A DNA stretch of 64,000 nt from Candidatus Latescibacterota bacterium. GTDB taxonomy: Bacteria > Latescibacterota > UBA2968. Under the pieces are notes generated by a model. It saw only the letters and a program-made list of their open reading frames with translations. It made no database searches and was not told where the DNA came from. The translations under genes and the position numbers were made by a program. Below are positions 37,071 through 56,755 of this stretch, piece by piece. The stretch's first letter is position 1, and each line of letters begins with the position of its first letter. The stretch is taken from contig OZ242320.1 in the NCBI GenBank assembly GCA_965208125.1, forward strand, positions 3,328,001-3,392,000, in the 5' to 3' direction.

Positions 37071-37085
37071 GAGATTTCCTTCTGT

Positions 37086-37123
37086 GTAGGGGCGGTGCCC
37101 CCGTGCCCGCCCGTCGTAGGGGC
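37086..37123. repeat. GTAG-type REP-like element
   Basis: GTAGGGGCGGTGCCCCCGTGCCCGCCC identical to 41591-41617, followed by a partial second copy. Confidence 0.75.
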
Positions 37124-37288
37124 AGATGTCCTTTTTTGTTCGTCTGAATATACGGGAAAATGCGCGAGGTGAAAAGCGCAACGTATGGGCGACGCGGCCT
37201 GATGCTACCGGGTTGGTTGTCAAAATGGGTATAAGGTCTTAATTTTATATTGATTTTACGCAACTTCTACAGCATTGGCGATTGTAAA

Positions 37289-42020: not shown

Positions 42021-42148
42021 GGCGATTCTCCTATTTGAAGATATAGGACAAAATTGAGTCTGTATAGGACCACCGAGCAGAATAAGAATATGGGAAAACG
42101 GACCGCAATGCAAGGTTCGATTCTTGTTCTGGCGGAATATCCTTATGA

Positions 42149-45100
42149 GTTTCAATCCGCTCCCTGTAGCGAGGTGCAGGGAGATAGACTTGTCCGCATA
42201 GTACTCGAGCAAGTCTTTCATGTTTCAATCCACTCCCCCAACTAGAGTTAGGGAGGATTGCGATTACAGAGCCTATCTCACAGATAACTATGAAGTTTCA
42301 ATCCGCTCCCGCACCGGAGTACAGAGAGATTCGCGTTCCTTGGTATTCTTAATCTCATTATTCTGGATGTTTCAATCCGCTTCCTGCACCGAAGTACAGA
42401 GAGATACTACGATCCCCTCCCTGAGTGGGCTGGATGGTGCAGTTTCAATCCGCTCCCTACACCAGAGTACAGGGAGATCTTATACAGCGCATCCTTTATG
42501 AGCCAGTGCTTGTAGTTTCAATCCGCTTCCCCAACTGGAGTTAGGGAAGATTTTGGAGATGCCAACACTGCCGGACAATTCGACGTGTTTCAATCCGCTC
42601 CCTGCACCGAAGTACAGGGAGACCCTGCGGCTGGTCGTGAACCCAGACAATATTGTCATGTTTCAATCCGCTTCCCGCACCGAAGTATAGAGAGATTTTA
42701 CGCCCGAACCGCGCTCGTTTTGTTGCTCTTCGTTTCAATCCGCTCCCTGCACCAGAGTACAGGGAGATATGGGGTTATATCCATAACGAAAGAAAAATTC
42801 ATTGTTTCAATCCGCTCCCTACACCGAAGTATAGGGAGATGTTTGCCCGATATTTGGGACAAAATATCTGTGTAGTTTCAATCCGCTCCCTACACCGAAG
42901 TATAGGGAGATCCATGATCTTGTCCTGGTCACGTTTTGGGAAATGGGTTTCAATCCGCTCCCTACACCGAAGTATAGGGAGATCACCACACCACCAGCGT
43001 CCATGCGCGTGATTGAAGGTTTCAATCCGCTCCCTACACCGAAGTATAGGGAGATAACTCAGAATATCCCCGGCGTTCCAGGTGCTGATGTTTCAATCCG
43101 CTCCCTACACCGAAGTATAGGGAGATCGGTGAGTATTGGGCTGGACGGAGAAGATGAGGACAGTTTCAATCCGCTCCCTACACCGAAGTATAGGGAGATG
43201 AAGTCACAACCGGTTGGTCAGTTGATTTTGTAAATGTTTCAATCCGCTCCCTACACCGAAGTATAGGGAGATACTGCCTGTTGCGAGCACATTGGTCCAT
43301 CCACTCCAGTTTCAATCCGCTCCCTACACCGAAGTATAGGGAGATAGGGTAAATTTTGTCATGGGGTTTCCTTTACTGGTGTTTCAATCCGCTCCCTACA
43401 CCGAAGTATAGGGAGATTGTCTGTTTGGTGGTCGCTCATCGGGCAAGACGTGGTTTCAATCCGCTCCCTACACCGAAGTATAGGGAGATTCCCCGCCCGC
43501 CTTTGTGTATGCTGGCGCGTAAACGTTTCAATCCGCTCCCTACACCGAAGTATAGGGAGATCCACATGCGGTGCCCTATTCCCGACACGGATATAGGTTT
43601 CAATCCGCTCCCTACACCGAAGTATAGGGAGATTAGTTTGCCATGATTGTGAGACAAAAGGGTGTGCAGAATGTTTCAATCCGCTCCCTACACCGAAGTA
43701 TAGGGAGATCGAGGCGAAGCGCGGCATTAAGGTGCTTCGTGATGAGGTTTCAATCCGCTCCCTACACCGAAGTATAGGGAGATCCGGCCATTCTCGGTCA
43801 GGTAATGGTTCATTCTTTGTTTCAATCCGCTCCCTACACCGAAGTATAGGGAGATAAATGGAATTACCGAAATCTAATCGTCGCTATGTATGTTTCAATC
43901 CGCTCCCTACACCGAAGTATAGGGAGATTGTGAGTAGGCATGTTTTGAAACCGCTGGAAGTGGGTTTCAATCCGCTCCCTACACCGAAGTATAGGGAGAT
44001 CTTACCGGGGCGGTCAGTGATGATGTGGTCACATTGTTTCAATCCGCTCCCTACACCGAAGTATAGGGAGATATGGACTCCATCGCGTATTTCAACTTTG
44101 TGTGGCGTTTCAATCCGCTCCCTACACCGAAGTATAGGGAGATTTCACAGATATAGAGTGTGGAAACATTATTAACACGTTTCAATCCGCTCCCTACACC
44201 GAAGTATAGGGAGATAGATTTCATTAGAATACCTTTTGGAATAAGTGTAGTTTCAATCCGCTCCCTACACCGAAGTATAGGGAGATTTTCATATTCCTTC
44301 ACTAGACCGCTCTGCAGAGGCCCTGGTTTCAATCCGCTCCCTACACCGAAGTATAGGGAGATATTCCGTGGTTCGGAGAGGATGCTTGGGAATGGGCGAG
44401 TTTCAATCCGCTCCCTACACCGAAGTATAGGGAGATGTGTTAAATACTTGGGTATATAGTCTGTCAACCGACGTTTCAATCCGCTCCCTACACCGAAGTA
44501 TAGGGAGATGGTAAACCATAATAGCCTTCCATGCCCGGAATTGCAGTTTCAATCCGCTCCCTACACCGAAGTATAGGGAGATCCCGTCCATCTTGTCCAA
44601 ATCTGCTTACAATTCGCGTTTCAATCCGCTCCCTACACCGAAGTATAGGGAGATACAAAACACTAAAACAAAAAATCTTCAGTGCGGCAGAGTTTCAATC
44701 CGCTCCCTACACCGAAGTATAGGGAGATCGTTGGATACTGGGAAGAGAACAATAATTGACAGGTTTCAATCCGCTCCCTACACCGAAGTATAGGGAGATT
44801 CCATTTAGGGATCTTTCTTCAGGTGAAGAATAAATGTTTCAATCCGCTCCCTACACCGAAGTATAGGGAGATAGATAATCCCAGAACAATCAGAGAACGA
44901 CTATCCCTGTTTCAATCCGCTCCCTACACCGAAGTATAGGGAGATGATCGTGTTTTTGAAGTATAAACAAACTGAATGAACGTTTCAATCCGCTCCCTAC
45001 ACCGAAGTATAGGGAGATCATCGTCCAAACTGTAGTGGCTGTGATTATGCAGGCTGTTTCAATCCGCTCCCTACACCGAAGTATAGGGAGATTCGCGTTC

Positions 45101-45822
45101 AGCGAAGCCAATAAACCACATGTAATGGAGTTTCAATCCGCTCCCTACACCGAAGTATAGGGAGATAAATATGATGTTTAAATCGCCAGCCGCGTCACAA
45201 AGTTTCAATCCGCTCCCTACACCGAAGTATAGGGAGATCATCGATGGATATGAGGATCACCAGAAAATAATGAAGTTTCAATCCGCTCCCTACACCGAAG
45301 TATAGGGAGATTGGGACCTGGGGTATAACCCGGCGGGACTGAAAGAGTTTCAATCCGCTCCCTACACCGAAGTATAGGGAGATTCAAGGAACAGGGGTTC
45401 TTGTCGAATGAATCAAAATGTTTCAATCCGCTCCCTACACCGAAGTATAGGGAGATGTCGCATAATCTGCAAGCCCAGCATCGACATGTGCGGTTTCAAT
45501 CCGCTCCCTACACCGAAGTATAGGGAGATTTTTCATCTGCGCTTGATATGTCGAAAACAGAGACCGGTTTCAATCCGCTCCCTACACCGAAGTATAGGGA
45601 GATATCATATCAATGTTCAAACGGGGAAAATCTATTACCAGTTTCAATCCGCTCCCTACACCGAAGTATAGGGAGATAAATAACAAGCATCTGAACCTTG
45701 AATCGCCAAAAGGTTTCAATCCGCTCCCTACACCGAAGTATAGGGAGATGCCTCATTCATTGTCAGACGTTTCATCTCGCAATATGTTTCAATCCGCTCC
45801 CTACACCGAAGTATAGGGAGAT
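42149..45822 (-). CRISPR. CRISPR array: 51 repeats (37 bp), 50 spacers (~34-39 bp)
   Basis: Repeat on minus strand ATCTCCCTATACTTCGGTGTAGGGAGCGGATTGAAAC. 42 identical copies at 42804-45822 and 9 variant trailer copies at 42149-42768; leader lies on the cas2 side. Confidence 0.99.
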
Positions 45823-46002
45823 ACTGGTTGTTGTAACCAGCGTAATACCAAAAGGTTATACAAGTGGATGCGCGAATCTCCTTTCTTACACATCCTTCGA
45901 TTAAAGTGAGAGCAACAAACTTGCTGTAAATAGTTGTTAGTCATAGGTTTGTAAATTGCGCGAAAGTAGGGGCAAAACGCCGTCACTTTACTTTCGCGCC
46001 AG
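45823..46002 (-). promoter_or_regulatory. CRISPR leader
   Basis: Non-coding 180 bp between cas2 and the first identical repeat; IHF-like site and TGCGCGAA direct repeats. Confidence 0.8.
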
Positions 46003-46290
46003 TTAAAAAATCAGTGGTTCGTTTAAGTCCACGGGTTCTTTAAGCCCGTGATGCTCTATCTTGTTTTTGGCGTCTTCGTCCAGGTGATAGATCCTGAGAG
46101 AATCTTGCTTGGGATCTATTTCTTCCAGCAGACGGGTCTTGAGTTCCGCCCATTCTGTTTTTCCCACCTGACATTCAAAAAGCGATTTTTGAGCACGGAC
46201 ACCATAATCCTTACAGGCTCTCGCCACTCGCCGCAGCCGCCTTTGTCCTGCTCGGTCAGTTGTGGAAACATCATAAGCAATCAGTTTCAA
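46003..46290 (-). CDS. cas2: Cas2 (I-C type)
   Basis: IAYDVST..AGQRRLRRVARAC..YG.RAQKSLFEC, DSLRIY. Confidence 0.95.
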   Translation of the reverse strand: MKLIAYDVSTTDRAGQRRLRRVARACKDYGVRAQKSLFECQVGKTEWAELKTRLLEEIDPKQDSLRIYHLDEDAKNKIEHHGLKEPVDLNEPLIF

Positions 46291-46326
46291 TTTTTTCTCC
46301 TTACCGAAACAAGTGGCGATACTGCG

Positions 46327-47412
46327 TTATTTTATGATAAATGGAATATAGTCGGGAATATCGCCGCGGAGTTTTCGGGCCAATAATTTAGCTTGAATGC
46401 TGAACACTTGCCCTATGCGGATATTCTGCTTGAACAAAGGGTGCTTTACTTCTGTTTGCTTGCGCCGTTGCCAGGCCTGAATAACCTCTCTTCTACCATG
46501 ATCGGTAAACTCTACGGCACCGCCCTCTCGTTCGCGGAAGTGCTTAGGCTCGATTTGGCGGCGGTTGATCAGAGTCAGTGCCAGCCGCTCTGCCAAACAG
46601 GGACGAAATTCTTCCATCAGATCCAGGGCACAAGCCGGCCTTCCCGCGCGTGTTGCATGAAGCCAGCCGACATAAGGATCTAACCCGGCGGTTGTCAATG
46701 CGGCCAGGCAATCGTGACGAACCAGGGCATATATAAAGGAAAGCAAGCAGTTTACCCGATCTCGGGGCGGTCGCCGTGTGCGGTTTACAAATTTGAAGTT
46801 TTCTCGTTGCTGTTTGAGCATGTATTGGAATACCGAAAAATAGATTTTTGCTCCCAGACCTTCCAATCCTCTGATAGGATCAAGTGTCTCCCGAAGTCCG
46901 CAATCTGGATCAACGGACGAAGCGTCTTCCGGCTCAGCCTCAAGTGCAACTGAAAGTTGGCGGATCAATCGGGCGAGTTCATCAGCCGCTCCCGCCAATT
47001 TCGCTCGGTCCGAATCTATATCGGCTTCCCGAGCAGATCGCAAGAGGTTGGAACGCGAGTTCTGTAATTTCCCGGCGACAAATTGCCGAGCCAGACGAGC
47101 CGCGTCTTCTGGGCTGTCCGCTGCTGCGTACTGAGCACGACGCAGCAAGTAGCGGGTATCTCCGCTTCCTATGACTTGTGCCAGCAGGTAGCCATTTTCT
47201 GTATGATAATGTACGGCCACTTGATGCGCCCAGCACAAAGCCATAGCTGGCGGCGTAACCACGACCTGCCCGAAAGCGCAAATACTTTCCAGATGGTGAA
47301 TCGGAACGGTCAGACGGGTTTGCTTTTCGATCTCAATCCGAAGCGTTAAGTGGTCTCTGAGCACTACGGTTTTTGGTGTCGTCAGATAAAGTGTATTTTG
47401 AATGATAGCCAT
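46327..47412 (-). CDS. cas1: Cas1 (I-C type)
   Basis: NTLYLTT, VPIHHLE, RGLEG, RRPPRDRVNCLLSF.Y, GLDPYVGWLH, LDLMEEFR. Confidence 0.97.
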   Translation of the reverse strand: MAIIQNTLYLTTPKTVVLRDHLTLRIEIEKQTRLTVPIHHLESICAFGQVVVTPPAMALCWAHQVAVHYHTENGYLLAQVIGSGDTRYLLRRAQYAAADSPEDAARLARQFVAGKLQNSRSNLLRSAREADIDSDRAKLAGAADELARLIRQLSVALEAEPEDASSVDPDCGLRETLDPIRGLEGLGAKIYFSVFQYMLKQQRENFKFVNRTRRPPRDRVNCLLSFIYALVRHDCLAALTTAGLDPYVGWLHATRAGRPACALDLMEEFRPCLAERLALTLINRRQIEPKHFREREGGAVEFTDHGRREVIQAWQRRKQTEVKHPLFKQNIRIGQVFSIQAKLLARKLRGDIPDYIPFIIK

Positions 47413-47420
47413 ACGTGGTT

Positions 47421-48059
47421 TTAATCCCCTCCCGATGAATCGGCAGTATCAAAAACTTGCCGATAGGCACGCGCCAGCGTGGGAGGAACGCTGGTGATCT
47501 CGGGAAGACAATAATCAAAAAGCGAACACTCAGAACACTGGGGCTTATGGATGGCATTTGGGACGACTTCCTTTTCAATGAGCCGATGCATGGCTTCAAT
47601 GGCCTGTTCGGTAAAATGGCGCAATTTCTCTGTGAACACTATCTTTCGGCGGCGTTTGCTCCTGGCGTGAAAGATGGCACCCTGAGAAATATCCAACCCG
47701 AACATTTCTTCGAGGCACAGAGCCTGCGCGCAAAGCTGGGCGTCGTCATTGTCGAATTTGCGCCGTCTGCCTTTTTTGAACTCGACAGGAACCAACGAAC
47801 CATCGGAATGACGTTCAACAATGTCGCATCTGCCGCTGAGACTGAGCCGATCAGACCAGATGGGCAAAGCACGCAGCAAGGTGACGCCTCTGATGTTTTC
47901 ATAACCCGAAACATCGGCCTGTTCGTGAACACTACCGCCGATCACGGTGTGCTCGTTGGTCCCTCGCCACCCCTCAATCGCCTTCAATGCCGCCCGACGT
48001 TGACAATAGAGGTAGTCGTTGAGGAGTGAGAGGGGAATGGGATCGTGGAGATTTATCAT
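47421..48059 (-). CDS. cas4: Cas4
   Basis: YCQRR, G.CDIVE, PVEFKKG, QLCAQALCLEEM, CSECSLFDYC. Confidence 0.96.
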   Translation of the reverse strand: MINLHDPIPLSLLNDYLYCQRRAALKAIEGWRGTNEHTVIGGSVHEQADVSGYENIRGVTLLRALPIWSDRLSLSGRCDIVERHSDGSLVPVEFKKGRRRKFDNDDAQLCAQALCLEEMFGLDISQGAIFHARSKRRRKIVFTEKLRHFTEQAIEAMHRLIEKEVVPNAIHKPQCSECSLFDYCLPEITSVPPTLARAYRQVFDTADSSGGD

Positions 48060-48133
48060 ATTGACACTTCACTATTCCTAAACGCATTGAGTTCCACAAC
48101 ATCCTTTATTATTTTATTCAGGTTAGTATTAAT

Positions 48134-50371
48134 TCATAACATGTACCCGTCTGCGCCACCATCAACGAGCGGGAGCACACCCGCCATGAATCCTAAAAAG
48201 GGATCGTAATCAAGTTCCCATGAGAATAGTCCAGGCAGGCGGTCGAACTCGCGCAGTGCCCATTCTGTGGCGCGTGATCCATATATCTGTACGCTTCCAT
48301 TTTGAAGATCTTGAGTCAGAACATGTTGGTCGTATTCAATTTTTTCTTTTATGGACTCATCAACTACGGCTGTCAATGTTGGTGAATCTATGACTCGAAA
48401 TAGTTCGGCAACCTTTGGAAAGTTCAGAGCATCCTCGGCTTTTAGCAACTCATCCTTTTGCAGCCGTGATCGACGAATCTCACGTCGTAGTGCCTCGGTA
48501 CAGGCACTCACTCCAACTTGCCTTTCATTGAACAACTCTCCCAATACTGCGGATGAATATTCAAATGTCGGATGGGGTCGGAGCCACGAGTCATGGGCCA
48601 ACTGAATGTCCCAAACATCGGCAGACTCATATTCCCTTCCACGGTTTACTCGACCAGCGATTTGCAAGAGACTATTCAAGCAAGCACGCTCGCGGATGCC
48701 CGTCCGAAATGAAAAATCAACTCCAGCTTCAACACAGGAAGTCGCTACGAGTGTCCAATCTCGATCATCATCGTTCGATAACCGATCAATAACTCGATTC
48801 AGAGTAATCGCGCGGTCAGTTGGTATGAGTGCCGTTGAGAGATGTTCTACTTGAGGGTGATTCGATTGCCAGTTGTTTTGATGCTTCCAGTTAGCAAGAT
48901 GTCTTGCGATAACGGCAGCCGATTGCACAGTGTTCACAATGAGCAGACGTGGACCTGGCAGTTGAAGTAACCACGGCTTTAGTGTTTTCAAACTCATGGG
49001 TTCAGGATGAGATTGATAGGTGACACGCGTCGCCTCGCGATCCAGACTTTCATCTCGCACGCGCATATCTACCAGATCAGGCACAGTCGGGAGGGGATCA
49101 ACAAACTCAGGCAATTCCCAGAAGCGGCTCAATGAACCTGACCCAACAACGAAGTAACAGCCCCAGTCGGTTTTCAAGTCCTGTAACCACTTCCATGTGA
49201 TCGGCCACAAATGCGCTGGCAGCGCGGCGTGGGCCTCGTCGACAAAGATCGCAGAGCCAGCGACTTGATGGAGTTTTCGCAATGCTCCAGTTCGACAGGC
49301 GGCAAGAGTTTCAAAAAACTGAACGGCGGTTGTCACAACGATGGGAGTGTTCCATAGATAGGTCAGATGTCGAGTCGCAAGACTGTTGAATTCCGCACGG
49401 TGATGGTGGGCTGCGACAACACGTTCGGGATTCTCATCTGCTCTGACGAGTGATTCTCGATACACCCGGACTGACTGGTCAATGATATTTGTATATGGCA
49501 GGACTATAAAAATCCGACGTAGTTTTTGTGTAGCCGCTACATTCAGTAGATGTGCCATGATTGCCGTTGTCTTTCCAGAACCAACTGGTGAATCGCAGGC
49601 CACCAATGATTCACTAAATGGATCTGCATTGCGGCAAGCGCGATAAACATCCTGTCTCAGTTGCGTGCGTTCGTCTTCTTTGTTCTCAGATAATCCAGCG
49701 ACGTATTGATCCAGAAGCTCGAGCCGTATAGCTGGCTCAAGTTTCGGACTCGTAACAGAAAAAGCTTGTCCATAATTCCGCGCTGTATCAAAATGATCGG
49801 CATCAACAAGACAGGACAACGCCAAACGGAGCAATACAGATAGATCGCTTTGGCGTTGCTTATTTAAGTCTATTGATTGCCTTGTGCTTGCGAATACCGA
49901 TTGGTGCATACGCAAGTATTCGTCTAACTGTTTGTCAGTGTGATCTTTTGTCGTTCGTCCAGATTCGTCCCGCTCTAAATCGCGAAATGGTCGCCCAGCT
50001 TCTCGTGTACTATGTTCGGTGATATCCGGTAGTCCACGGTGGTGTGAGAAGATGAGAATGGCCGCCAACTGTGCGGCCATTTGCGGCGGATCTTTCAGTA
50101 AATTAGCCACTCCCGCATCAACGTGATTCACTGGCAGACGACCACTGCCACCTACTGAAAGAACCGCTTGGTTCTCAGGATCAAGTTTGCCGAGATCGTG
50201 AAATTCGGCTGCCAAATCAACAGCTAACTTGAATAATTGACCATCAGTAGCGGTAGCAGTCAGTTCATTAGCATGTCGGACTGCCAACTTAATAACGTTC
50301 TCCAGATGTTCGGAATACGGTTGAGCTGGAATCTCGTTCTCTGGCTGCGGACTATGTGCGAGCAACATCAC
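48134..50371 (-). CDS. cas3: Cas3 HD nuclease-helicase
   Basis: HL, HDLGK, HH, LVDADH; SPVGSGKT, DEAH, NTV, EAGVD, QIAGRVNR. Confidence 0.95.
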   Translation of the reverse strand: MMLLAHSPQPENEIPAQPYSEHLENVIKLAVRHANELTATATDGQLFKLAVDLAAEFHDLGKLDPENQAVLSVGGSGRLPVNHVDAGVANLLKDPPQMAAQLAAILIFSHHRGLPDITEHSTREAGRPFRDLERDESGRTTKDHTDKQLDEYLRMHQSVFASTRQSIDLNKQRQSDLSVLLRLALSCLVDADHFDTARNYGQAFSVTSPKLEPAIRLELLDQYVAGLSENKEDERTQLRQDVYRACRNADPFSESLVACDSPVGSGKTTAIMAHLLNVAATQKLRRIFIVLPYTNIIDQSVRVYRESLVRADENPERVVAAHHHRAEFNSLATRHLTYLWNTPIVVTTAVQFFETLAACRTGALRKLHQVAGSAIFVDEAHAALPAHLWPITWKWLQDLKTDWGCYFVVGSGSLSRFWELPEFVDPLPTVPDLVDMRVRDESLDREATRVTYQSHPEPMSLKTLKPWLLQLPGPRLLIVNTVQSAAVIARHLANWKHQNNWQSNHPQVEHLSTALIPTDRAITLNRVIDRLSNDDDRDWTLVATSCVEAGVDFSFRTGIRERACLNSLLQIAGRVNRGREYESADVWDIQLAHDSWLRPHPTFEYSSAVLGELFNERQVGVSACTEALRREIRRSRLQKDELLKAEDALNFPKVAELFRVIDSPTLTAVVDESIKEKIEYDQHVLTQDLQNGSVQIYGSRATEWALREFDRLPGLFSWELDYDPFLGFMAGVLPLVDGGADGYML

Positions 50372-51225
50372 TCCTCCATCAAATCCCGAATTTTTGCGAC
50401 ACGAGCGGCTAATTCACCAGGCAACTCTGTGGGCACAATGTAATCAGCCCAAGCATTCGAAGGTGAGTCGGAATTGCCATTCTTCTTTGGCGTCAATGCT
50501 TCTATAATCGCGAAATCGGAGCAGGATCCCAGCACTGATTTGTGTTCAACTACCCAGGCGTGACGTAGATCGACAAGCGGTCGGGCATGAGACCGAGTAT
50601 GTGCGTAGGCGTGAGGGATGACTTTGAACAACAAGTCAATATCTTGCTGTGTGCAACCCGATTTGTGGGCCACGGATGGGTTAATAAAAAACGGCATGCA
50701 ATAGACACCATGTGGTACAAAGCGATATCCCATCGGTGCCATGCCACGGTCTTTACCTTCTTGCACTCCAGCTTTATTTGTATTAGTATGGCGACTGATT
50801 TCGATAGGGGCTACGCTTAGTCCAAGACCGAATTGAGCCACACCTGTCTTGATCGTGTCAGCGGATCCTTCTTCCAAGAAAGTGTTCCCGAACACGCGGC
50901 CATCCCAATATTTGGCTTGAAATGATCCGTTTTTCAATTCACCTTCAATCGTCTTGCGAACCCGCCCACGCGACTCAAGGATCGCAAATTGTTCATCATT
51001 CAGGTTCATTTCCTTCTTCATAACTTGCCAAACAGTCCCATCCTTTGATTCGATCAAATCACGCACTTTGCGTTTGAATGAAACAGGAGAAATTTCTCCT
51101 CGACCATCAGGGCGTTGCCGAGGATCGCTCTCACGGTCTGGATCGCCGTTGGGATTGGAATTGACGACTTCTATGACCAGAAGTCCCGTAAATCGTTTTA
51201 CGTCATTGGCGTTAGTATCTGTCAT
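50368..51225 (-). CDS. cas7: Cas7 (Csd2/Csh2 group)
   Basis: NSNPNGDPD...PR, VSFKRKVRD, DGRVFG, G..QF. Confidence 0.92.
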   Translation of the reverse strand: MTDTNANDVKRFTGLLVIEVVNSNPNGDPDRESDPRQRPDGRGEISPVSFKRKVRDLIESKDGTVWQVMKKEMNLNDEQFAILESRGRVRKTIEGELKNGSFQAKYWDGRVFGNTFLEEGSADTIKTGVAQFGLGLSVAPIEISRHTNTNKAGVQEGKDRGMAPMGYRFVPHGVYCMPFFINPSVAHKSGCTQQDIDLLFKVIPHAYAHTRSHARPLVDLRHAWVVEHKSVLGSCSDFAIIEALTPKKNGNSDSPSNAWADYIVPTELPGELAARVAKIRDLMEE

Positions 51226-51226
51226 T

Positions 51227-51631
51227 CTACTCTCCTTCAGTTAAGGCATTAGACGAATCGTCGTTAGATTTTTCCTTTTCAGAACGGGCGAGGTACCCAA
51301 GCAGCATGGCGACCTTGTCGGTATCTGAACACCGACTCGGCACATCCGTGTCGGAAAGTGACGCGCATACGCGCCCCATCTCACTGAGGAAATACTTGGC
51401 GAGACGCACTTCATCACCGCCTTGGACTGTTTGTGCCCAAGCGTGATAGGGCTTGATGCGCTGCCACAACAAGGCGAGAGCCTTTTCGGGTGTTTCCATC
51501 GCACTTGTCATGAGGGCGTTGCCCACCAGTTGAGGTGGTATTTGGTCCTTGCGTACTTCACGACAATACTGAACATGTAATTGATCGGCTAAACTCAGTA
51601 GGCGACCAATCAGATAAGGTGGGCTCTTCAT
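51227..51631 (-). CDS. cas11: Internally translated Cas11 (134 aa)
   Basis: In-frame ATG at 51631 preceded by AAAGGAATTTAT; product MKSPPYLIGRLL... Confidence 0.7.
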   Translation of the reverse strand: MKSPPYLIGRLLSLADQLHVQYCREVRKDQIPPQLVGNALMTSAMETPEKALALLWQRIKPYHAWAQTVQGGDEVRLAKYFLSEMGRVCASLSDTDVPSRCSDTDKVAMLLGYLARSEKEKSNDDSSNALTEGE

Positions 51632-53356
51632 ATAAATTCCTTTCTTGTAGTCGAGTTTTCCAAGTAGTAATCCGAGAATCTGGGGAAGCAACAGTGCTTG
51701 CTTACCGTAAATCTTTCCTATAGGGTGAACCTTTCCTTGGTGGGCAGCTTGTCCGAGCGTAAGTAGAAGTGATAACGAATTACTGGTGATCGCCCGAACT
51801 GCCCTCATAGTGACCGCTTGCAGGATTGGCCCCTCTTCTAAGAGTAACGCTAGGCCATCCGAAATCTGGAAGTCAAAAGCAATTTCCGCATGTGTGCCCA
51901 TTCGCTTCCAGATCGTGTTTAGACACCAAACCACTTCAGATGGATAGGGTATTAGTGGACGCTTCCAGACGGATTTCTCACCTTTCTGAGAACCGAATTG
52001 ACGAATCATTACTGGCGGCGAATCGCGACATAGTGCTTGCCATTCGTCAGCACTGTTGAGCAGATGTTGAACGGTATAGCGACTGCTGTGTAGCACCTTG
52101 GTCCGAAAGCCATCAGGCTTAGTTAGGACAAAAATGCGCAGTTCAGCATTTCGTGACGATGCAGATTGTCCCTTGAGAGTCTCGGTAACACGACGTGCAC
52201 ATGCCTCAAAACGTAAACCATCGGGATCGGATTGTTCTCTTTTATCGCCGAATAACCCCGCGAGCTCAGGTGTTTCTGTAGGCAGTTCGGAGGGATAGAC
52301 GATCAACATTGCCGACGCATCACCACCGAGCGAGGAAACGTCACACCATGTTTTGCCACGTCGTTCATCTCTTGTGATCCATTCCAGAGCGTTTTTCAGG
52401 TTTTGACGTACTGGCTGCGAGACTTGGAAAGATTTGGCTTCAGCCAGACCATACCGCCGCTGACACGGCGATTCGCCAGACATTGCATGGAGTTTTACAT
52501 TACCCATTACCGACATCTTAACTTCGGGAAACTTGTCATTCATTCCACCGCCTTCCATCGCAAAGGCATCTGTCGCACCTTCGTATCTCTCTTTTTCTAA
52601 GGTTTCCATAGCTAGCAGGCGGTCACTTACCCAAGTTTGAACTTCTGGATGGTTGGCTGGATACGCAAATTGTGATTGATCAACGAGTTCCAGGGTGATC
52701 GCTATATTCTTTGGTGTCTTCCCGGAATGGAAGAACAAAACATCCATCCATTCAGCAGCTTCTGATTGGTCGGACTTTATCCTCTGGATCGCGATTTCTT
52801 TCAATTGTTCATGCAGTGCAGCCCCATTCGTCTTCTTCGCGCGACGCAACAATTCTACAAATGATCGTGATTCAGGGGTACCTTCATCCAAAACTACTGT
52901 TAGATCTTGAGTGACTGAGGATAAACAATCATTCAATTTGTCCATTGCATCTTTGCTGCGTGCGCTTTTTTCGGGGCGAATCCAACCCGACGTACTAACC
53001 GACAGTAGGTGTACCAATTCCTCGTCACGCATCAAGGCATCCGGAGGCTTTTTCGATCCCAATAATTTTTTAAATTTAGCCGCACGTTCCTTTTTCTCAT
53101 CGTTTTCGAACTGTAGCAATGGCGGTACATTGAACGATGGAAACGAGTAACCAGCCGCTTTTTCGTATTTCCGCAATCCTGCACGAATTTGCGGATCGGT
53201 AATCGGCGAAACTTGGGCAACCTGTCCTTGAGTATCGAGTTCGACAAAGAATGCTTTTCCTCCTTGCGGGCATTCTTTGAAGTGCCGATGCCAAGACTGA
53301 AGTTTGACGCCGGTCCGTTCCAGACTCTTGTAAAGAAGAAAGAGTTCATTTATCAT
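51227..53356 (-). CDS. cas8: Divergent Cascade large subunit (Cas8c-like) with C-terminal Cas11 domain
   Basis: Position between cas5 and cas7; C-terminal PYLIGRLLSLAD...MLLGY resembles the Cas8c small-subunit domain. N-terminus not recognisably canonical. Confidence 0.75.
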   Translation of the reverse strand: MINELFLLYKSLERTGVKLQSWHRHFKECPQGGKAFFVELDTQGQVAQVSPITDPQIRAGLRKYEKAAGYSFPSFNVPPLLQFENDEKKERAAKFKKLLGSKKPPDALMRDEELVHLLSVSTSGWIRPEKSARSKDAMDKLNDCLSSVTQDLTVVLDEGTPESRSFVELLRRAKKTNGAALHEQLKEIAIQRIKSDQSEAAEWMDVLFFHSGKTPKNIAITLELVDQSQFAYPANHPEVQTWVSDRLLAMETLEKERYEGATDAFAMEGGGMNDKFPEVKMSVMGNVKLHAMSGESPCQRRYGLAEAKSFQVSQPVRQNLKNALEWITRDERRGKTWCDVSSLGGDASAMLIVYPSELPTETPELAGLFGDKREQSDPDGLRFEACARRVTETLKGQSASSRNAELRIFVLTKPDGFRTKVLHSSRYTVQHLLNSADEWQALCRDSPPVMIRQFGSQKGEKSVWKRPLIPYPSEVVWCLNTIWKRMGTHAEIAFDFQISDGLALLLEEGPILQAVTMRAVRAITSNSLSLLLTLGQAAHQGKVHPIGKIYGKQALLLPQILGLLLGKLDYKKGIYMKSPPYLIGRLLSLADQLHVQYCREVRKDQIPPQLVGNALMTSAMETPEKALALLWQRIKPYHAWAQTVQGGDEVRLAKYFLSEMGRVCASLSDTDVPSRCSDTDKVAMLLGYLARSEKEKSNDDSSNALTEGE

Positions 53357-53993
53357 AGAGTAGGACTCCATTTTCGATTACGACGTTTTGTCGAAATGTG
53401 GGCTGATAAGTACCAAATTTTGGTTCGGAGAAGACGGAGTGTAGCATGCTTGGAATGACGGTGTTGATTTTTTGACAGACCTTAGTCTCGTCACGAAATG
53501 GTCCTACATAACTTGGCGTAAACTCCTTCCATCCCAAGCAGGGAATAGAATGCCATTGACCACGCATCAATCGGCGTCCAAATATATCTCGATATGCGTG
53601 TGCCCCATTGCGAGAAAGAGTAGGCGATTGCTTCGCGCGTTCTGACAGTCTCCGCATGCCAGGATCCACGGTGACCACCTCAGCGTATAGCCGATAGTTG
53701 ACATTGATCAACACTGTCGCCAGTAGTTGGTAGCTACTTCCCTGCTGCATTATTCTGCTCTTACGCAGAGGCCCGCCATAGTTTGTCGAATATGTGTGGA
53801 ATACAAGAGGTGTGCAGATTTCAACCTTAATTGGCACGACGTGAGCAGACTTGAGCCAACAGATTGATTCAAACATGCCCTTTGCTGCTGAAAATGTTGG
53901 CACCGGATAGCTAACAGGAGCATCACCAGTATCAGGCCGAGTCCACATGGCCGTTGGTCCGGCGATTTCGAATTGCACTGTGTAGGATTTCAT
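53346..53993 (-). CDS. cas5: Cas5 (Cas5d-like)
   Basis: EIAGPTAMWTRP...VSYPVPTFSAAKGMFESI.W, PCLGWKEF; ATG at 53993 after GGAG. Confidence 0.9.
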   Translation of the reverse strand: MKSYTVQFEIAGPTAMWTRPDTGDAPVSYPVPTFSAAKGMFESICWLKSAHVVPIKVEICTPLVFHTYSTNYGGPLRKSRIMQQGSSYQLLATVLINVNYRLYAEVVTVDPGMRRLSERAKQSPTLSRNGAHAYRDIFGRRLMRGQWHSIPCLGWKEFTPSYVGPFRDETKVCQKINTVIPSMLHSVFSEPKFGTYQPTFRQNVVIENGVLLYDK

Positions 53994-54051
53994 TATATTC
54001 TCCAAATGTATTACCGAAATTTCGAGCTGGAAGGATTTGCAGAATTCACCA

Positions 54052-54080
54052 AATATAGTGCAAATATGTTCACTAAACAA
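54052..54080 (-). promoter_or_regulatory. Putative cas operon promoter
   Basis: TTGTTT-17 bp-TATATT on the minus strand, same -10 as the sod and HPR promoters. Confidence 0.45.
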
Positions 54081-54110
54081 GAAAATTTTGAACCTACGAT
54101 ATCCTCAAAA

Positions 54111-54171
54111 GAAATGGTAGAGGAAGGATGTGTATAGAATGGATTGGAGACTATGACGTTGTTCTGATTCC
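54111..54171. repeat. Direct repeat copy 1 (~60 bp)
   Basis: GAAATGGTAGAGGAAGGATGTGTATAGAATGGATTGGAGACTATGACGTTGTTCTGATTCC; similar to 54671-54731. Confidence 0.8.
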
Positions 54172-54227
54172 ATGATAATTCCGTGCAAAAAAGTTGCTTT
54201 TCGTTCCGAAGTTGGCTATATCTTATT

Positions 54228-54288
54228 CGGCGACCAGATGGGCCGGTGTCAACCGACCCAGGACAATGTCCCTGGCCGCTACTTTTTT
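54228..54288. ncRNA. Candidate small structured RNA (multi-stem)
   Basis: Nested stems 54230-37/54272-79 and 54240-47/54252-59; upstream TTGCTT-17-TATATC, downstream T6. Confidence 0.35.
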
Positions 54289-54345
54289 GATCTCCTGCTC
54301 ATATATTTTCCCTTTACCGCTTGCGTGAAAAAAGAGGAGTTATTC

Positions 54346-54546
54346 ATGCTCCGCACAGCTTTGGGCATTGTGAGAGACGGTAAAATCGAAATTTTAGAAC
54401 ACATTGCATTACCTGAAGGACAAAGGGTATTGGTCACCATGTTGCCCAACGATGATATTTTTTGGCGGGAAGCCAGCCAGGAAACCCTGAAACAGATTTG
54501 GAACAATAAAGAGGACGATGTGTATGCCCGATTACTTGATAAATGA
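54346..54546 (+). CDS. Small antitoxin-like protein (DUF104/AF2212-like), orphan
   Basis: GIVRDGKIE..E.IALPEGQRVLVT...WNNKEDDVY; GAGGAG RBS. Confidence 0.65.
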   Translation: MLRTALGIVRDGKIEILEHIALPEGQRVLVTMLPNDDIFWREASQETLKQIWNNKEDDVYARLLDK

Positions 54547-54547
54547 T

Positions 54548-54697
54548 ATTAAACCATTGTTGAAGCAGAATGGACAAACGACAGACGCCGATATTGCAAA
54601 ACAGCGGGAAACTGCTCGGCGTATGCGCGAAGCACGCGATAAAATGCCTCCACTTGATATGTCAATAAAAGAGATGGTGGAGGAAGGGCGTGTGTAA
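54548..54697 (+). pseudogene. C-terminal fragment of a second antitoxin
   Basis: Frame without a clear RBS or start: IKPLLKQ...ARRMREARDKMPPLDMSIKEMVEEGRV*. Confidence 0.4.
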
Positions 54698-54731
54698 TAA
54701 TGGATTGGAGACTATGACTTTGCTCTGATCC
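54671..54731. repeat. Direct repeat copy 2
   Basis: GAGATGGTGGAGGAAGGGCGTGTGTAATAATGGATTGGAGACTATGACTTTGCTCTGATCC. Confidence 0.8.
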
Positions 54732-55704
54732 TCTGATTACTTCCCTTCTCATACATCCTCCCCGCCGCGATCATATCCTTTGCGATGACCTGTCGCAATT
54801 CCTCTGGTTCTATCACCTCGCAATCTGCGCCCCAGCCCCTGATCCAGGGTTTCATTTCCAGCGTGTGACTCACGGTTAATGTCATGAGACAGCCGCCGTC
54901 TGGCAGGTCGTCAATGGTATCGACGCAGGGCCAGTCCGATTCCCGCACGCGGTAGGCCACATTGGGCGAGAATCGGAGTTTGACGACAATGCGTTCATCG
55001 CCACCCATGACGCCCCAGGCTTGCGTGAGATAATCGTAGGGGTCAAAATTGTCGCGAATCTCATAAGATGATTCGAGGATTTTGACCTGCTGCACGCGCT
55101 CGATTTTGAACTCTCGGATGTCGTGGCGCAGATGGTCATACCCGATTACATAACAGGCATATCCCACGGGCGAAGGTTCGATAAAATAAGGGTCAAAGAC
55201 GCGCCTGGTGGTTTCATCGGTGTATGGATTGTAATACGTCAAACGCACCTGTTTGCGTTCAGACCACGCGCTGGTGAATGTTTCCAAAATGCGGATGTAC
55301 TCGCGATGCGGTCTGCGCTTGTGCGTGGCTTCGGCGGTTCGGGTGATGTGTTGACCGATTGATTCGGGAAGCGCGCTGGCGAGTTTTTCAAGTGCCGAGA
55401 CGACATGGGGATTGTGTTTGTCGCTGTGCGCTGAGAGCAATCGGGCTGAGAGATACAGTGCGAGGGATTCGTGCAAGTTCACGCGCACAGATGTGATATA
55501 GCGATCTTTCACAACGCCAAAATGGTGGTCTTCTTCCCAAATCGGCACGCCAGATCGCTCAAGAGAACGCAAGTCGCGATAAGCAGTTGTGCGGTGATAC
55601 CCAAAGCGTTCAGCAATTTCACGAGCAGTTAGCCCTCGAGAAGATTGAAAAAGCAAGTTTTCCAGCATTTTGAGTCGTTCTGCGCGGGTTTCGTCGCGGT
55701 CCAT
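54712..55704 (-). CDS. HTH-WYL-WCX transcriptional regulator
   Basis: wHTH EIAERFG..RTTAYRDL; WYL R.FDPY...CYVIGYD..R..FKIERV; WCX PWIRGWGADCEVIEP; ATG at 55704 after GGAGG. Confidence 0.92.
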   Translation of the reverse strand: MDRDETRAERLKMLENLLFQSSRGLTAREIAERFGYHRTTAYRDLRSLERSGVPIWEEDHHFGVVKDRYITSVRVNLHESLALYLSARLLSAHSDKHNPHVVSALEKLASALPESIGQHITRTAEATHKRRPHREYIRILETFTSAWSERKQVRLTYYNPYTDETTRRVFDPYFIEPSPVGYACYVIGYDHLRHDIREFKIERVQQVKILESSYEIRDNFDPYDYLTQAWGVMGGDERIVVKLRFSPNVAYRVRESDWPCVDTIDDLPDGGCLMTLTVSHTLEMKPWIRGWGADCEVIEPEELRQVIAKDMIAAGRMYEKGSNQRIRAKS

Positions 55705-55833
55705 AAAACCTCCTGTGTGACAATATAAGACATGGGTGTTGCGACTTTCGCTACATATAATAAAAAAATCGTGGGATGGGATAAACGGAATCAAAATAGA
55801 GCGCGTTGAGGGTGGGGTTTTAGAGAGGGAAAG

Positions 55834-56319
55834 TTATGGCAGGATAGCGTATTGATCGACAAATTCAGCAGGAGACAAGATGGGAATATTTTGGTATGAA
55901 CCCAAATTCTTAAGATGACGGTCACCAGAGACAATGCACTCGGCTTGAGACTCAACCGCGGCGATGATGACAGTATCGTCTTCGGAGTCGGCTTCAATAG
56001 TTTTGATATCTAAAACGCCAGGGGTGACTCGTGCCTGTCGGCGTAAGGAGCGTAGAAAATCTTGAATTTGTTCGCCAACATCATCAGGGGAAAAGCGGGC
56101 CGAAAGAAACCGGAACAGTGCTGGGCGGTGCAAAACCTCATCTATTTTGTCTATCATAGACTCGGATAGTGCGATAACGAGTTCATCTCGCTTCCAGGCA
56201 GATAAAATACGAGCCGGGGGAGCGAAGTCCTCCCGCCGGCTAATAAGAGCAGAGATCAAAACATTAATATCAAGCACCACCACGGGGCGCGGGTTATCAG
56301 GTGGTTGGGTATTGGGCAT
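55834..56319 (-). CDS. PIN-domain toxin (VapC-like)
   Basis: VVLDINVLISAL, E, DSEDD, IVSGDRHL. Confidence 0.88.
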   Translation of the reverse strand: MPNTQPPDNPRPVVVLDINVLISALISRREDFAPPARILSAWKRDELVIALSESMIDKIDEVLHRPALFRFLSARFSPDDVGEQIQDFLRSLRRQARVTPGVLDIKTIEADSEDDTVIIAAVESQAECIVSGDRHLKNLGSYQNIPILSPAEFVDQYAILP

Positions 56320-56339: not shown

Positions 56340-56612
56340 TTAGCGTTTCACTTCATCTACAGCCTGATCTATCCTGGCGGATAAGTCATCCACATCTTTG
56401 AAAGCTTCTGCTACGCGATCAAAAACGGCAAAATCTTCAGCTTTCTGACGCATATAAGTCCTGTAAGATGCGTAGCGTTCTGCTGGCAATAAAACAGCTA
56501 CTGTTTGGCCTCGGTCATTTTTGACTTCACAGGTTTCGTCAGTAGAACAAAGCGATTGAACAAGCTGACGAAATTTGCTATCACTGTCTTTGAGGTTTAA
56601 AACTTGAGACAT
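56340..56612 (-). CDS. Phd/YefM-like antitoxin
   Basis: Short ORF directly upstream of the PIN gene; RGQTVAVLLPAERY. Confidence 0.7.
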   Translation of the reverse strand: MSQVLNLKDSDSKFRQLVQSLCSTDETCEVKNDRGQTVAVLLPAERYASYRTYMRQKAEDFAVFDRVAEAFKDVDDLSARIDQAVDEVKR

Positions 56613-56755
56613 AACCAATCCCCCGAGGTTTCGGCCTATTCATCAAAGATTAAAGCACATATAATTGAGAATATACTACAATACACAGGTAGATGCAACG
56701 CACGTAATAAAGTAACCCATTTACGCTTGCCAAGCTGCCGAACCTGCGCGCGGTT

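Follow-up and report, generated by a model that had tools for sequence, protein, structure and literature searches.

The closest described counterparts of the locus analysed here are the type I-C Cascade-Cas3 systems of Desulfovibrio vulgaris (7KHA, 8DEJ, 8DEX) and Neisseria lactamica (8G9S-8G9U), which have a Cas5c-type Cas5, Cas8c, Cas7, a Cas11c domain whose start is internal, an HD-helicase Cas3 and Cas4-Cas1-Cas2, but no Cas6, and whose repeats carry overhangs of 2 nt on the 5' side and 11 nt on the 3' side. The locus found in the window (a stretch of 64,000 nucleotides from a Candidatus Latescibacterota genome that consists of a single contig of 5.75 Mb and is 96.4% complete) resembles them in all these respects, including a predicted Cas8c fold over the whole length of the large subunit. 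It is a complete CRISPR-Cas system of type I-C and not a new kind of system. Taken as a whole, the observations are best explained, with high probability, by membership of the effector genes (cas5, cas7, cas3 and cas8, the last with cas11c inside it) in a deep, widespread side lineage of I-C with the fixed order cas5-cas8-cas7-cas3.

A preliminary description of this DNA had taken the locus for a divergent I-C variant and had proposed profile scans of Cas8, Cas5 and Cas7, a structure prediction against the I-C Cascade and a Cas7 phylogeny. The locus indeed belongs to a divergent I-C lineage, with cas3 behind cas7 and with Cas5 as the sole candidate for repeat processing.

Gene content and order

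All genes lie on the minus strand, where the WYL regulator is followed by cas5, cas8, cas7, cas3, cas4, cas1, cas2, the leader and the array (Table 1), in agreement with the preliminary reading of the gene order. The ATG of cas3 overlaps the stop codon of cas7, whereas in D. vulgaris and N. lactamica cas3 is the first gene. The WYL gene probably starts at the ATG at 55704, which is preceded by GGAGG and coincides with the end of the region as first delimited, and cas8 at Met6 (53356), where its relatives begin, which yields the length of about 709 aa originally estimated. The reported absence of cas6 holds for the locus as well as for the whole single-contig genome (no matches to TIGR01877 and PF01881), across which Cas1 has a single match. 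A consensus promoter scan of the WYL-cas5 intergenic region gave no signal above shuffles. To our knowledge, this gene order is unlike that of every characterised I-C locus.

Table 1. Features of the I-C locus (window coordinates)
Feature	Position	Strand	Description and basis
WYL regulator	ORF 54712-55794; likely 54712..55704	-	HTH_11, WYL and WCX domains (Pfam WCX 70 bits, WYL 55 bits, HTH_11 34 bits)
WYL-cas5 intergenic region	53994..54711	-	presumed promoter and operator of the cas operon
cas5 (Cas5c/Cas5d type)	ORF 53346-54080; likely 53346..53993 (ATG 53993)	-	presumed pre-crRNA endonuclease
cas8 (divergent Cas8c large subunit)	ORF 51227-53371; 51227..53356 from Met6	-	709 aa
cas11c candidate, in frame inside cas8	51227..51631	-	Met581 to end, 134 aa, own Shine-Dalgarno sequence
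cas7	50368..51225	-	backbone subunit; Pfam Cas_Cas7 176 bits
cas3	ORF 48134-50371; 48134..50368	-	HD nuclease and helicase; PADLOC Cas3c 332 bits, full length
cas4	47421..48059	-	PADLOC Cas4c 216 bits
cas1, type I-C	46327..47412	-	TIGR03640 414 bits (cut-off 385)
cas2	46003..46290	-	PADLOC Cas2c 127 bits
Leader	45823..46002	-	cas2 to first repeat; identical repeats at leader end of array
CRISPR array	42149..45822	-	51 repeats of 37 nt, 50 unique spacers
Putative exchanged effector cassette	47790..54042	-	5' UTR, cas5, cas8/cas11c, cas7, cas3, 5' part of cas4

The effector proteins differ from those of D. vulgaris and N. lactamica in missing the curated NCBIfam cut-offs: Cas7 scores 125 bits with TIGR02589 (Csd2, cut-off 182.25), Cas5 42.8 bits with TIGR01876 (cut-off 85) and the Cas3 core 81.8 bits (cut-off 102.45), and Cas8 likewise falls short of its own (see below). 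The Cas3 HD domain (TIGR01596, 57.5 bits) and Cas1c exceed theirs. The PADLOC I-C profiles did match, those for Cas8c, Cas5c (78.5 bits), Cas7c, Cas3c, Cas4c and Cas2c giving the best or full-length matches. Furthermore, the closest solved relatives by sequence are all I-C chains: 7kha_B and 8g9s_B for Cas7 (E = 1e-23 to 1e-21), 3vzi, 8dex and 8g9t for Cas5, and 8g9u_P for Cas3 (E = 2e-34).

This lineage is large. The Cas8 family comprises 914 cluster representatives at E <= 1e-3 (437 at E <= 1e-30), and 58 related loci were found among 185,579 species genomes, in many bacterial phyla and in methanogens. Where the order could be tested, cas7 was followed by cas3 in 48 of 48 loci and cas5 stood ahead of cas8 in 47 of 47, cas4 lay no more than 3 kb behind cas3 in 34 of 41, and all seven genes occurred in order in 28 of the 58. 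The preliminary description had called cas3 'relocated'; it does follow cas7, but as the fixed order of a large family rather than as a local oddity. The effector genes are thus a widespread side branch of I-C, for which the portions of the literature searched offer no prior characterisation.

In type I-B loci, cas3 comes after the Cascade genes, directly before cas4-cas1-cas2. The same placement of cas3 here, the label of the top PADLOC Cas7 profile ('CAS-I-B,CAS-I-C', 176 bits) and the good scores of some Cas7b and Cas3b profiles (245 bits for Cas3b, against 332 for Cas3c) would fit a hybrid or a separate subtype between I-B and I-C. We consider this very improbable: I-B systems have Cas6 and Cas8b, whereas the window has no cas6, its Cas5 is of the Cas5c type, and its large subunit matches the fold of I-C Cas8c alone, the I-B Cas8 chains reaching Foldseek E-values of 0.03-0.4. 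Csd2 also outscores Csh2 on Cas7 (125 vs 53 bits, NCBIfam), and both Cas1 and the repeats are I-C in type.

Cas8 fold and the internal cas11c start

The Csd1 profile TIGR01863 matches only residues 582-695 of Cas8 (43 bits, cut-off 218.65) and Pfam Cas_Csd1 gives 21 bits (cut-off 27), so that the original impression of a protein with a Cas8c-like C-terminus alone stands for the canonical profile; it does not stand for the PADLOC Cas8c profile PDLC01562, which spans residues 6-708 with 488 bits, or for the fold. Compared by hhalign, canonical Cas8c from the same phylum gave no match (probability 0.6%), and judged by sequence the two have diverged past recognition. Cas8 is 10-13% identical to the D. 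vulgaris and N. lactamica proteins and about 100 aa longer.

The AlphaFold model (pLDDT 81) nevertheless aligns end to end, over residues 5-702, with solved I-C Cas8c (Foldseek E = 2e-10, VIA Z = 21). The best chains are 8dfs_I (Z 21.3, rmsd 9.6, 477 residues aligned), 8g9t_K (Z 21.2, rmsd 5.7, 504 aligned) and 8dex_I (Z 21.1, rmsd 4.0, 374 aligned), and the first unrelated chain follows at Z 6.2. The preliminary description had postulated a new N-terminus. When the N-terminal 435 residues alone were compared with 48,161 chains, only three reached Z >= 5, all of them I-C Cas8c (Z 11.4, 9.6 and 8.1; next 4.8), which contradicts that proposal; in the model, the N-terminus is not new, and the predicted I-C Cas8c fold extends along the whole length.

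Residues 577-699 match the solved Cas11c chain 9jhc_A (Z 13.2), and the internal ATG at Met581 is preceded by AAGAAAGGAATTTAT. Of 54 related loci, all 54 retain this start (ATG in 53, GTG in one), and upstream of it each has a stretch rich in purines that includes GG, in two different codon registers. An excerpt of PMC7684278 describes an internal ribosome-binding site in D. vulgaris cas8c. A conserved ATG with a Shine-Dalgarno sequence is what a hidden cas11c, expressed from within cas8, would be expected to show.

Repeats, Cas5 and crRNA processing

Among the repeats, 48 copies differ from the consensus by no more than 9 substitutions, 42 of these being identical, and three more diverged copies are found near 42222, 42295 and 42515. 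Spacers are mostly 34-39 nt long, with no near-duplicates among the 50. A protospacer search with these spacers found none, and the repeats at one end of the array are degenerate, as might be expected of a decaying, inactive remnant. Such a reading is extremely unlikely, given that all eight genes are uninterrupted, 42 repeats are identical and all 50 spacers unique, the degenerate repeats are confined to the leader-distal end far from cas2, as in working arrays, and the catalytic-type motifs and internal start are conserved. In one RNA library, only contigs of a relative 90-99% alike were matched, for which DNA carry-over is a possible source.

On the minus strand, the 37-nt repeat (CGGAUUGAAAC) consists of 2 nt followed by the 10-bp stem, UUCG loop and 11 nt originally described, and its fold has a minimum free energy of -15.9 kcal/mol (z = -3.87) that none of 200 shuffles equalled. 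Studied I-C repeats have the same overhangs but a 7-bp stem, according to an excerpt of PMC8524198. In 23 related loci, too, the repeat has 2 nt ahead of a stem-loop, and its 11-nt tail ends in GGATTGAAA(C/T). In a set of 12 different 37-nt repeats taken from related loci, pairing holds in 92.5% of cells, and compensatory changes occur at five of the ten pairs; the covariation score was reached by 0 of 500 shuffles and the count of compensatory pairs by 15 of 500.

Unlike its D. vulgaris and N. lactamica counterparts, Cas5 has the Tyr and His but not the Lys of the active site: none of the 22 aligned sequences has the catalytic Lys of the Lys-His pair, its position being taken by A, G, R or L, and an excerpt of PMC8524198 names this Lys as the only invariant residue of the triad. 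Such a Cas5 might not be the processing nuclease, in which case a host RNase or another protein would mature the crRNA. We regard this as improbable, since no sequence among the 22 departs from Tyr58 or His161 (numbering of the ORF from 54080), His161 overlies the catalytic His of chain 3vzi in the profile alignment, the genome contains no Cas6, and the hairpin and 11-nt tail are conserved and covary. Moreover, the working Cas5 of N. lactamica has K-F in place of K-H at the same position of the printed alignment, so the triad varies among the studied systems.

With Cas5 as the probable nuclease, the following course is suggested by homology to the systems solved for D. vulgaris and N. lactamica. 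The array would be transcribed from the leader adjoining cas2, and Cas5 would cleave every repeat where the 10-bp hairpin ends on its 3' side, so that the spacer that follows carries a 5' handle of 11 nt. Cas5, several Cas7, Cas8 and Cas11c, the latter made from the internal cas8 start, would assemble on the crRNA; Cas8 would read the PAM and recruit Cas3, which would degrade the target DNA. Cas4-Cas1-Cas2 would add spacers, and the WYL protein may regulate transcription of the cas operon.

Exchange of the effector cassette

In a second genome of the genus (G073), the corresponding chromosomal site carries a canonical I-C locus, L077, with the order cas3-cas5-cas8c-cas7 and a full-length Csd1 match of 332 bits. 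Its flanks are syntenic with those of the window (80-91% DNA identity), and the two loci have the leader in common, as well as 37-nt repeats with 4 differences between them. Protein identity is 69% for WYL, 72% for Cas4, 95% for Cas1 and 98% for Cas2, whereas it is 29% for Cas3, 27% for Cas5 and 30% for Cas7. No spacers are shared between the two arrays. In blastn, window positions 55197-54042, which take in the part of the WYL gene that encodes the C-terminus as well as the promoter region, are 88.8% identical to L077 7045-8192, upstream of L077 cas3; the segment 47790-54042 has no DNA match in L077, and the match resumes at 47790.

The breakpoints fall within genes. Residues 201-340 of the WYL protein are 95-100% identical to L077 and residues 21-100 only 25-38%, so that one breakpoint lies within the WYL gene; another lies near codon 80-90 of cas4, whose N-terminal windows are closest to variant loci (87-92% to L005, against 47-65% to L077) and whose C-terminal end is closest to L077 (97%). 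The trees disagree accordingly. The Cas1 tree places the window as the sister of L077 (support 99/94), whereas in the Cas7 phylogeny the longest branch parts the 51 variant rows from the 9 canonical ones.

The near-identity of Cas1, Cas2 and the repeat next to such divergent Cas3, Cas5 and Cas7 indicates that the effector cassette was exchanged in situ, in line with a trend that earlier work has described in CRISPR-Cas systems. On this sequence comparison, the cassette at about 47790-54042 appears either to have taken the place of a canonical cas3-cas5-cas8c-cas7 cassette at this chromosomal site or to have given way to one. Through the exchange the locus apparently retained its promoter region together with the C-terminal part of WYL, and likewise its leader, its repeat type and most of the adaptation module.

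The exchange bears on the earlier suggestion that the divergent N-terminal domain of Cas8 reads a PAM other than that of canonical I-C. This domain is far more diverged than the rest of the protein (11% identity, Z 11.4, rmsd 5.4 Angstrom), exceeds the matched portion of D. vulgaris Cas8c by about 60 residues in length, and is not linked to canonical Cas8c by sequence profiles. However, an adaptation module this similar serves a canonical effector in L077, and a swap would be viable only if the incoming effector accepted the PAM chosen by that module; in addition, one variant locus (L004) and one canonical locus (L062, genome G059) share an identical 37-nt repeat. A different PAM is therefore a possibility that we consider rather doubtful.

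The WYL regulator

The preliminary description had named a WYL regulator among the features of the atypical locus. It is not special to this variant, as shown by the copy that heads the canonical L077 locus and by at least 150 WYL-Cas3 fusions. The PADLOC profile PDLC01766 for such fusions is matched by the window WYL protein over positions 2-320 (302 bits) and by the window Cas3 over positions 327-970. At E <= 1e-10, WYL matches at least 150 proteins of 631-2000 aa, and among the 120 matches listed nearly all contain WYL, WCX and Cas3 domains, with 35-43% identity. In contrast to these fusions, which belong to I-C loci, the regulator is here a separate gene, with cas3 4 kb away behind cas7.

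Gene content and type assignment

The locus consists of eight genes, all uninterrupted and encoded on the minus strand, and of a CRISPR array that lies beyond them, behind a leader of 180 bp (table). Downstream of the gene for the WYL regulator, the order is cas5-cas8-cas7-cas3-cas4-cas1-cas2, which differs from the usual I-C arrangement cas3-cas5-cas8c-cas7-cas4-cas1-cas2; to our knowledge, the I-C subtype is not defined by its gene order. This order and the absence of cas6, both noted in the preliminary description, were confirmed by ORF listing, family scans and a whole-genome Cas6 search. The genome, a single contig of 5.75 Mb that is 96.4% complete, encodes one Cas1 and contains neither a Cas6 gene nor a further array with the repeat of this locus.

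Cas1 exceeds the threshold of the type I-C family TIGR03640 (414 bits, cut-off 385) and, together with Cas4 and Cas2, which match the PADLOC profiles Cas4c (216 bits) and Cas2c (127 bits), constitutes an I-C adaptation module. Cas3 is a single chain that combines the HD nuclease (TIGR01596, 57.5 bits, cut-off 43.45) with the helicase; it matches PADLOC Cas3c over residues 1-727 (332 bits) and the solved chain 8g9u_P (E = 2e-34). Cas7 scores 125 bits against the I-C Cas7 family Csd2 (TIGR02589), compared with a cut-off of 182.25, and 176 bits against Pfam Cas_Cas7 (cut-off 33.2), and among solved structures it is closest to I-C Cas7 chains (E = 6e-23). The locus is a real and complete type I-C system, and it probably works.

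Features of the locus and its surroundings, with comparison to the same-genus genome G073
Feature	Window position	Strand	Remarks	Protein identity to G073
DNA segment matched in G073	64000-58149		91%	
DNA segment with no match in G073	58149-55197			
456-aa ORF	56756-58126		no Pfam match	
92-aa ORF just upstream of PIN ORF	56340-56618		no Pfam match	
PIN-domain toxin-like ORF	55834-56319		PIN_3, 62 bits	
WYL regulator	55704	-	likely start, ATG (also the end coordinate in the preliminary description); HTH_11, WYL, WCX domains	69%
DNA segment matched in G073	55197-54042		89%	
~66-aa frame	54346-54546	+	within listed ORF 54172-54546	
DNA segment with no match in G073	54042-47790			
cas5	53993	-	likely start, ATG	27%
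cas8	53356	-	likely start, Met6; large subunit, 709-714 aa	
cas7		-		30%
cas3	50368	-	likely start, ATG, overlaps cas7 stop codon; HD-helicase	29%
DNA segment matched in G073	47790-42876		cas4 C-terminal part through array	
cas4		-		72%
cas1		-		95%
cas2		-		98%
CRISPR array	42149-45822			
Diverged repeat copies	42222, 42295, 42515		array trailer end	
Retropepsin-like aspartyl protease ORF	41586-42221	-	gag-asp_proteas, 28 bits	
DNA segment matched in G073	41569-41285		80%	
DUF4175 protein	31490-34789			
8-nt tandem repeat	31391-31470			
TPR protein	29617-31536			

The large subunit is a strongly diverged Cas8c

A strong, full-length match to the canonical Cas8c family Csd1 was not seen: TIGR01863 scores 43.2 bits (cut-off 218.65), confined to residues 582-695, in agreement with the preliminary description, according to which only the C-terminal domain looks Cas8c-like. 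PF09709 remains at 21.2 bits against 27, sequence searches retrieved no solved chain, and hhalign comparison of a 29-member family profile with 11 canonical Cas8c proteins of the same phylum yielded no match (probability 0.6%). PADLOC profile PDLC01562 (Cas8c, CAS-I-C), by contrast with the curated models, aligns residues 6-708 to its positions 1-654 of 658 with 488 bits. The AlphaFold model (pLDDT 81) has eight significant Foldseek matches, all of them I-C Cas8c chains, with E-values down to 2e-10. VIA-align superimposes the model on I-C Cas8c with Z-scores of 21.3, 21.2 and 21.1 (477, 504 and 374 aligned residues) from residues 4-702 of the model on 1-608 of the chain, and the first unrelated chain reaches Z 6.2. 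Profile and predicted fold together identify the protein as Cas8c across its whole length.

It had been proposed that the N-terminus of this protein is new. The PDLC01562 match and the predicted structure contradict this. When the N-terminal 435 residues were folded alone (pLDDT 85) and compared with 48,161 chains without Foldseek, only three I-C Cas8c chains were found at Z >= 5 (11.4, 9.6 and 8.1; next-best chain, 4.8), so that in the models this part is a strongly diverged and somewhat longer version of the Cas8c N-terminal domain. It includes a helical region of roughly 130 residues (about 84-217 in the model).

The C-terminal part appears to contain a hidden cas11c. The family keeps Met581 without exception, and its ATG (51631-51629) is preceded by AAGAAAGGAATTTAT. 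Among the 54 related loci in which the tblastn match covered this position, the internal start is kept in all (ATG in 53, GTG in one), and each has a GG-containing purine run 6-12 nt upstream, mostly AAAGGAG or AAGGAGG (AAAGGTG in L017, L021 and L022). This run occupies two codon registers, AAA-GGA-GAN and AAG-GAG-GAN, and the nucleotides are therefore conserved although the encoded residues differ. The domain from residue 577 superimposes on solved chains of Cas11c, the small subunit of the I-C Cascade, with Z 13.2-13.8. An internal ribosome-binding site in cas8c of D. vulgaris gives rise to the small subunit, as reported in PMC7684278, and the arrangement in the window lineage is the same. 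From these sequence features we infer that Cas11c would be translated from the internal cas8 start.

Repeats and crRNA processing

The array comprises 51 repeats of 37 nt, 42 of them identical, and 50 spacers. Degenerate repeats lie at the end distal to cas2, indicating transcription on the same strand as the cas genes. The repeat consists of 2 nt, a 10-bp stem closed by a UUCG loop and 11 nt on the 3' side (2 + 10 + 4 + 10 + 11 nt). Folding (-15.9 kcal/mol, z -3.87) and covariation uphold this structure, which had been proposed from the sequence: the helix is kept in 12 distinct 37-nt repeats of related loci, with 92.5% of cells paired and compensatory pairs at 5 of 10 positions, and none of 500 shuffles reached the covariation score. 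The repeats of 23 related loci have in common the 2-nt head and an 11-nt tail ending in GGATTGAAA(C/T); in distant members of the lineage, repeats measure 31-33 nt and stems 7-8 bp. The overhangs correspond to those of the studied I-C repeats, 2 nt on the 5' and 11 nt on the 3' side of the hairpin, as given in PMC8524198. The 3' tail would become an 11-nt 5' crRNA handle with the predicted sequence CGGAUUGAAAC.

The nearest solved proteins of Cas5 are I-C Cas5c/d nuclease chains (E = 7e-19 with a profile), and its TIGR01876 score is 42.8 bits (cut-off 85). Tyr58 and His161 (numbered from the ORF start at 54080) are invariant in all 22 family members, and in the profile alignment His161 corresponds to the His of the G-K-H motif in chain 3vzi. 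The residue before this His is A, G, R or L instead of Lys, contrary to the rule for I-C Cas5 in PMC8524198, where Tyr, Lys and His form the catalytic triad and Lys is its sole invariant member. Because the genome lacks Cas6 and the repeats combine a conserved hairpin with an 11-nt tail, Cas5 is nevertheless the likely crRNA-processing enzyme.

Some periods listed by TRF span several units and hinted at duplicated spacers; an all-against-all comparison found every spacer to be unique. Three repeat copies at the trailer end are strongly diverged, and two of them have in common an alternative stem sequence in which both arms are altered together; these copies may be remnants of an older repeat variant. 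The aspartyl protease ORF adjoins this end of the array and, as listed, overlaps the last degenerate repeat with its 5' end.

Distribution and gene order of the lineage

One database contains at least 202 close relatives of the Cas8 family, and of 1.84 billion representatives clustered at 50% identity, 914 match it at E <= 1e-3 and 437 do so at E <= 1e-30. When 185,579 species genomes were scanned, 58 loci emerged, which their record titles assign to Latescibacterota (75-79% identity), Planctomycetota, Nitrospirota, Chloroflexota, Bacillota, Synergistota, Spirochaetota and Thermodesulfobacteriota; methanogenic archaea also host the lineage, at about 28% identity. The cas3 gene, considered relocated in the preliminary description, is no local oddity, since cas3 follows cas7 in 48 of 48 testable loci. 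Likewise, cas5 precedes cas8 in 47 of 47, and cas4 begins less than 3 kb after cas3 in 34 of 41. The order of all seven genes is that of the window in 28 of the 58 loci, most of the others being broken by contig ends. One locus excluded from the testable set, L007 (10001-13710), is rearranged, with cas8 truncated after ~267 aa and followed by inverted cas3 and cas7. Given that related loci keep both the gene order and the I-C repeat layout, cas5-cas8-cas7-cas3 is the fixed architecture of an old lineage.

The window locus accordingly belongs to a divergent lineage already covered by existing profile sets and missed by the NCBI curated models; the three relatives for which a source name was displayed are all annotated as 'hypothetical protein' in NCBI or JGI. 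The literature searched contained no characterisation of the lineage and no work joining Latescibacter*, CRISPR and I-C; the variant may already be listed in the supplements of bioRxiv or classification papers. Where 'I-C variant' occurs in the literature examined, it denotes other things, namely I-U/I-G loci or Cas3 mutants.

The taxonomic labels of two related loci conflict: L004 is titled 'Gemmatimonadota bacterium', yet its spacers are those of L063 (genome G048), which is classed in the phylum of the window, and further close relatives are titled Latescibacterota.

Exchange of effectors at the same chromosomal site

Canonical Csd1 proteins scoring above the cut-off are present in 24 of 168 genomes of the window's phylum, and several of these loci adjoin arrays with the window-type repeat. 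In G073, of the same genus, the same chromosomal site carries WYL-cas3-cas5-cas8c-cas7-cas4-cas1-cas2 and an array (L077). Protein and DNA identities (table) and sliding identity place one breakpoint within cas4, near codon 80-90, and another within the WYL gene, near residue 200. A Cas1 tree of 36 rows joins the window and G073 as sisters (99/94 support) within a clade that mixes both effector types. The longest branch of a quick Cas7 tree of 60 rows parts nine canonical I-C proteins from 51 variant ones, and the window clusters there with variant loci of other genera. Both trees omit L059-L068, which are duplicate or array-only loci, and hits covering <85% of the query. In addition, the variant locus L004 and the canonical locus L062 (genome G059) have an identical 37-nt repeat. 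The comparison with G073 and this identity indicate that two effector lineages have been exchanged on a common chassis made up of the regulator C-terminus, promoter region, adaptation genes, leader and repeat. Such an in situ swap exemplifies a known trend and introduces no new principle.

These comparisons also bear on the suggestion that the Cas8 variant reads a PAM different from that of canonical I-C. The adaptation module is nearly the same as in the locus with canonical effectors, and the repeats can stand in for each other; newly acquired spacers would be useless if the effector required another PAM, and for this reason we regard a different PAM as rather unlikely. Protospacers were sought in several collections. 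The longest match of 47 window spacers in their own genome outside the array is 18 nt; the array has no match in 50,697 phage records (blastn, E <= 1), and in the 168 genomes of the phylum it matches only repeats or other arrays. A 26-nt piece of the leader-proximal spacer has no match in either viral or metagenome contigs, and ~1,070 spacers from all collected arrays, compared with the genome and with every locus, gave matches only between duplicate records of identical genomes. Spacer 45457-45492 was considered as possibly targeting cas3 of related loci and rejected, its ungapped full-length matches being only 22-23/36, the background level.

The WYL regulator

The regulator matches HTH_11 (34 bits), WYL (55 bits), WCX (70 bits) and PADLOC WYL (118 bits). 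Its domains and position beside the cas genes suggest a CRISPR-Cas-associated transcription regulator. A WYL gene lies upstream of the cas genes in the window, L001, L024, L027, L034, L077 and L079; by tblastn, the regulator precedes cas5 in only 4 of 58 loci. It is not specific to the variant: a copy heads the canonical locus of the same genus. The PADLOC Cas3c profile PDLC01766 represents a WYL-Cas3 fusion, to which both the WYL protein and Cas3 of the window match. The regulator also has matches among longer proteins, at least 150 of them at E <= 1e-10; of the 120 that were listed, nearly all fuse WYL, WCX and Cas3. Such a fusion was also considered for the gap between cas7 and cas3 in L025 and L028 and was rejected, since in the variant operon of L028 the gap holds a separate DUF3990 gene (2287-2817, 161 bits). 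A scan for sigma-70 promoters and terminators between the WYL gene and cas5 (53994-54711) yielded nothing above shuffles.

Related operon in a metatranscriptome

In one metatranscriptome run, 6% of the sampled words were present. Contigs from a library labelled sponge metagenome cover parts of 45925-55503, including parts of cas2, cas3, cas7, cas8, cas5 and the WYL gene, and one contig of 1,835 nt spans cas3, cas7 and the end of cas8. They are only 90-99% alike to the window, so their source is a relative rather than the window's organism, and a close relative with the same variant operon occurs in such samples. The contigs, which carry no strand or RNA-end information and could reflect DNA carry-over, hint weakly that this operon may be transcribed there.

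Implications

No Cascade-Cas3 system is more compact than type I-C, which serves as a tool for making large genome deletions. As far as we know, every I-C structure and assay comes from one branch. The second, very divergent branch is common (the 914 Cas8 representatives, from many phyla and methanogens) and retains the I-C blueprint, hidden cas11c included. The same-genus pair, with effectors from the two branches, allows crRNA compatibility, PAM compatibility and sensitivity to anti-CRISPRs to be compared. Three details make the locus interesting: the internal start for cas11c is conserved, the Cas5 active site lacks Lys, and the effectors were cleanly exchanged at the same site. None of them overturns existing knowledge.

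A stronger reading, which we judge improbable, is that the lineage forms a distinct, unnamed I-C variant, with a Tyr/His Cas5 site devoid of Lys and an expanded PAM-reading domain, yet interchangeable with canonical effectors while repeats, leader, adaptation module and regulator stay the same. If this were true, swapping the whole cassette would keep the spacer memory while escaping anti-CRISPRs against the old Cas8, Cas7 or Cas3, the two same-genus loci would be a natural test of effector interchangeability, and the lineage would be a source of I-C Cascade insensitive to known AcrIC proteins.

Neighbouring features

Between the WYL gene and cas5, opposite to the cas strand, lies a ~66-aa frame that has no Pfam, NCBIfam or PADLOC match and is found with 64-75% protein identity in L077, L079 and, behind the array, in L002. 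The ~3-kb segment missing from syntenic L077 includes the N-terminal part of the WYL gene and, with its PIN-domain ORF, looks like an inserted toxin-antitoxin-type module beside the CRISPR locus. Farther away, GC skew is strongly positive (0.18-0.36) across 12 kb (28000-40000) that contain the 8-nt tandem repeat and the TPR and DUF4175 genes, which fit an ordinary Bat-like operon.
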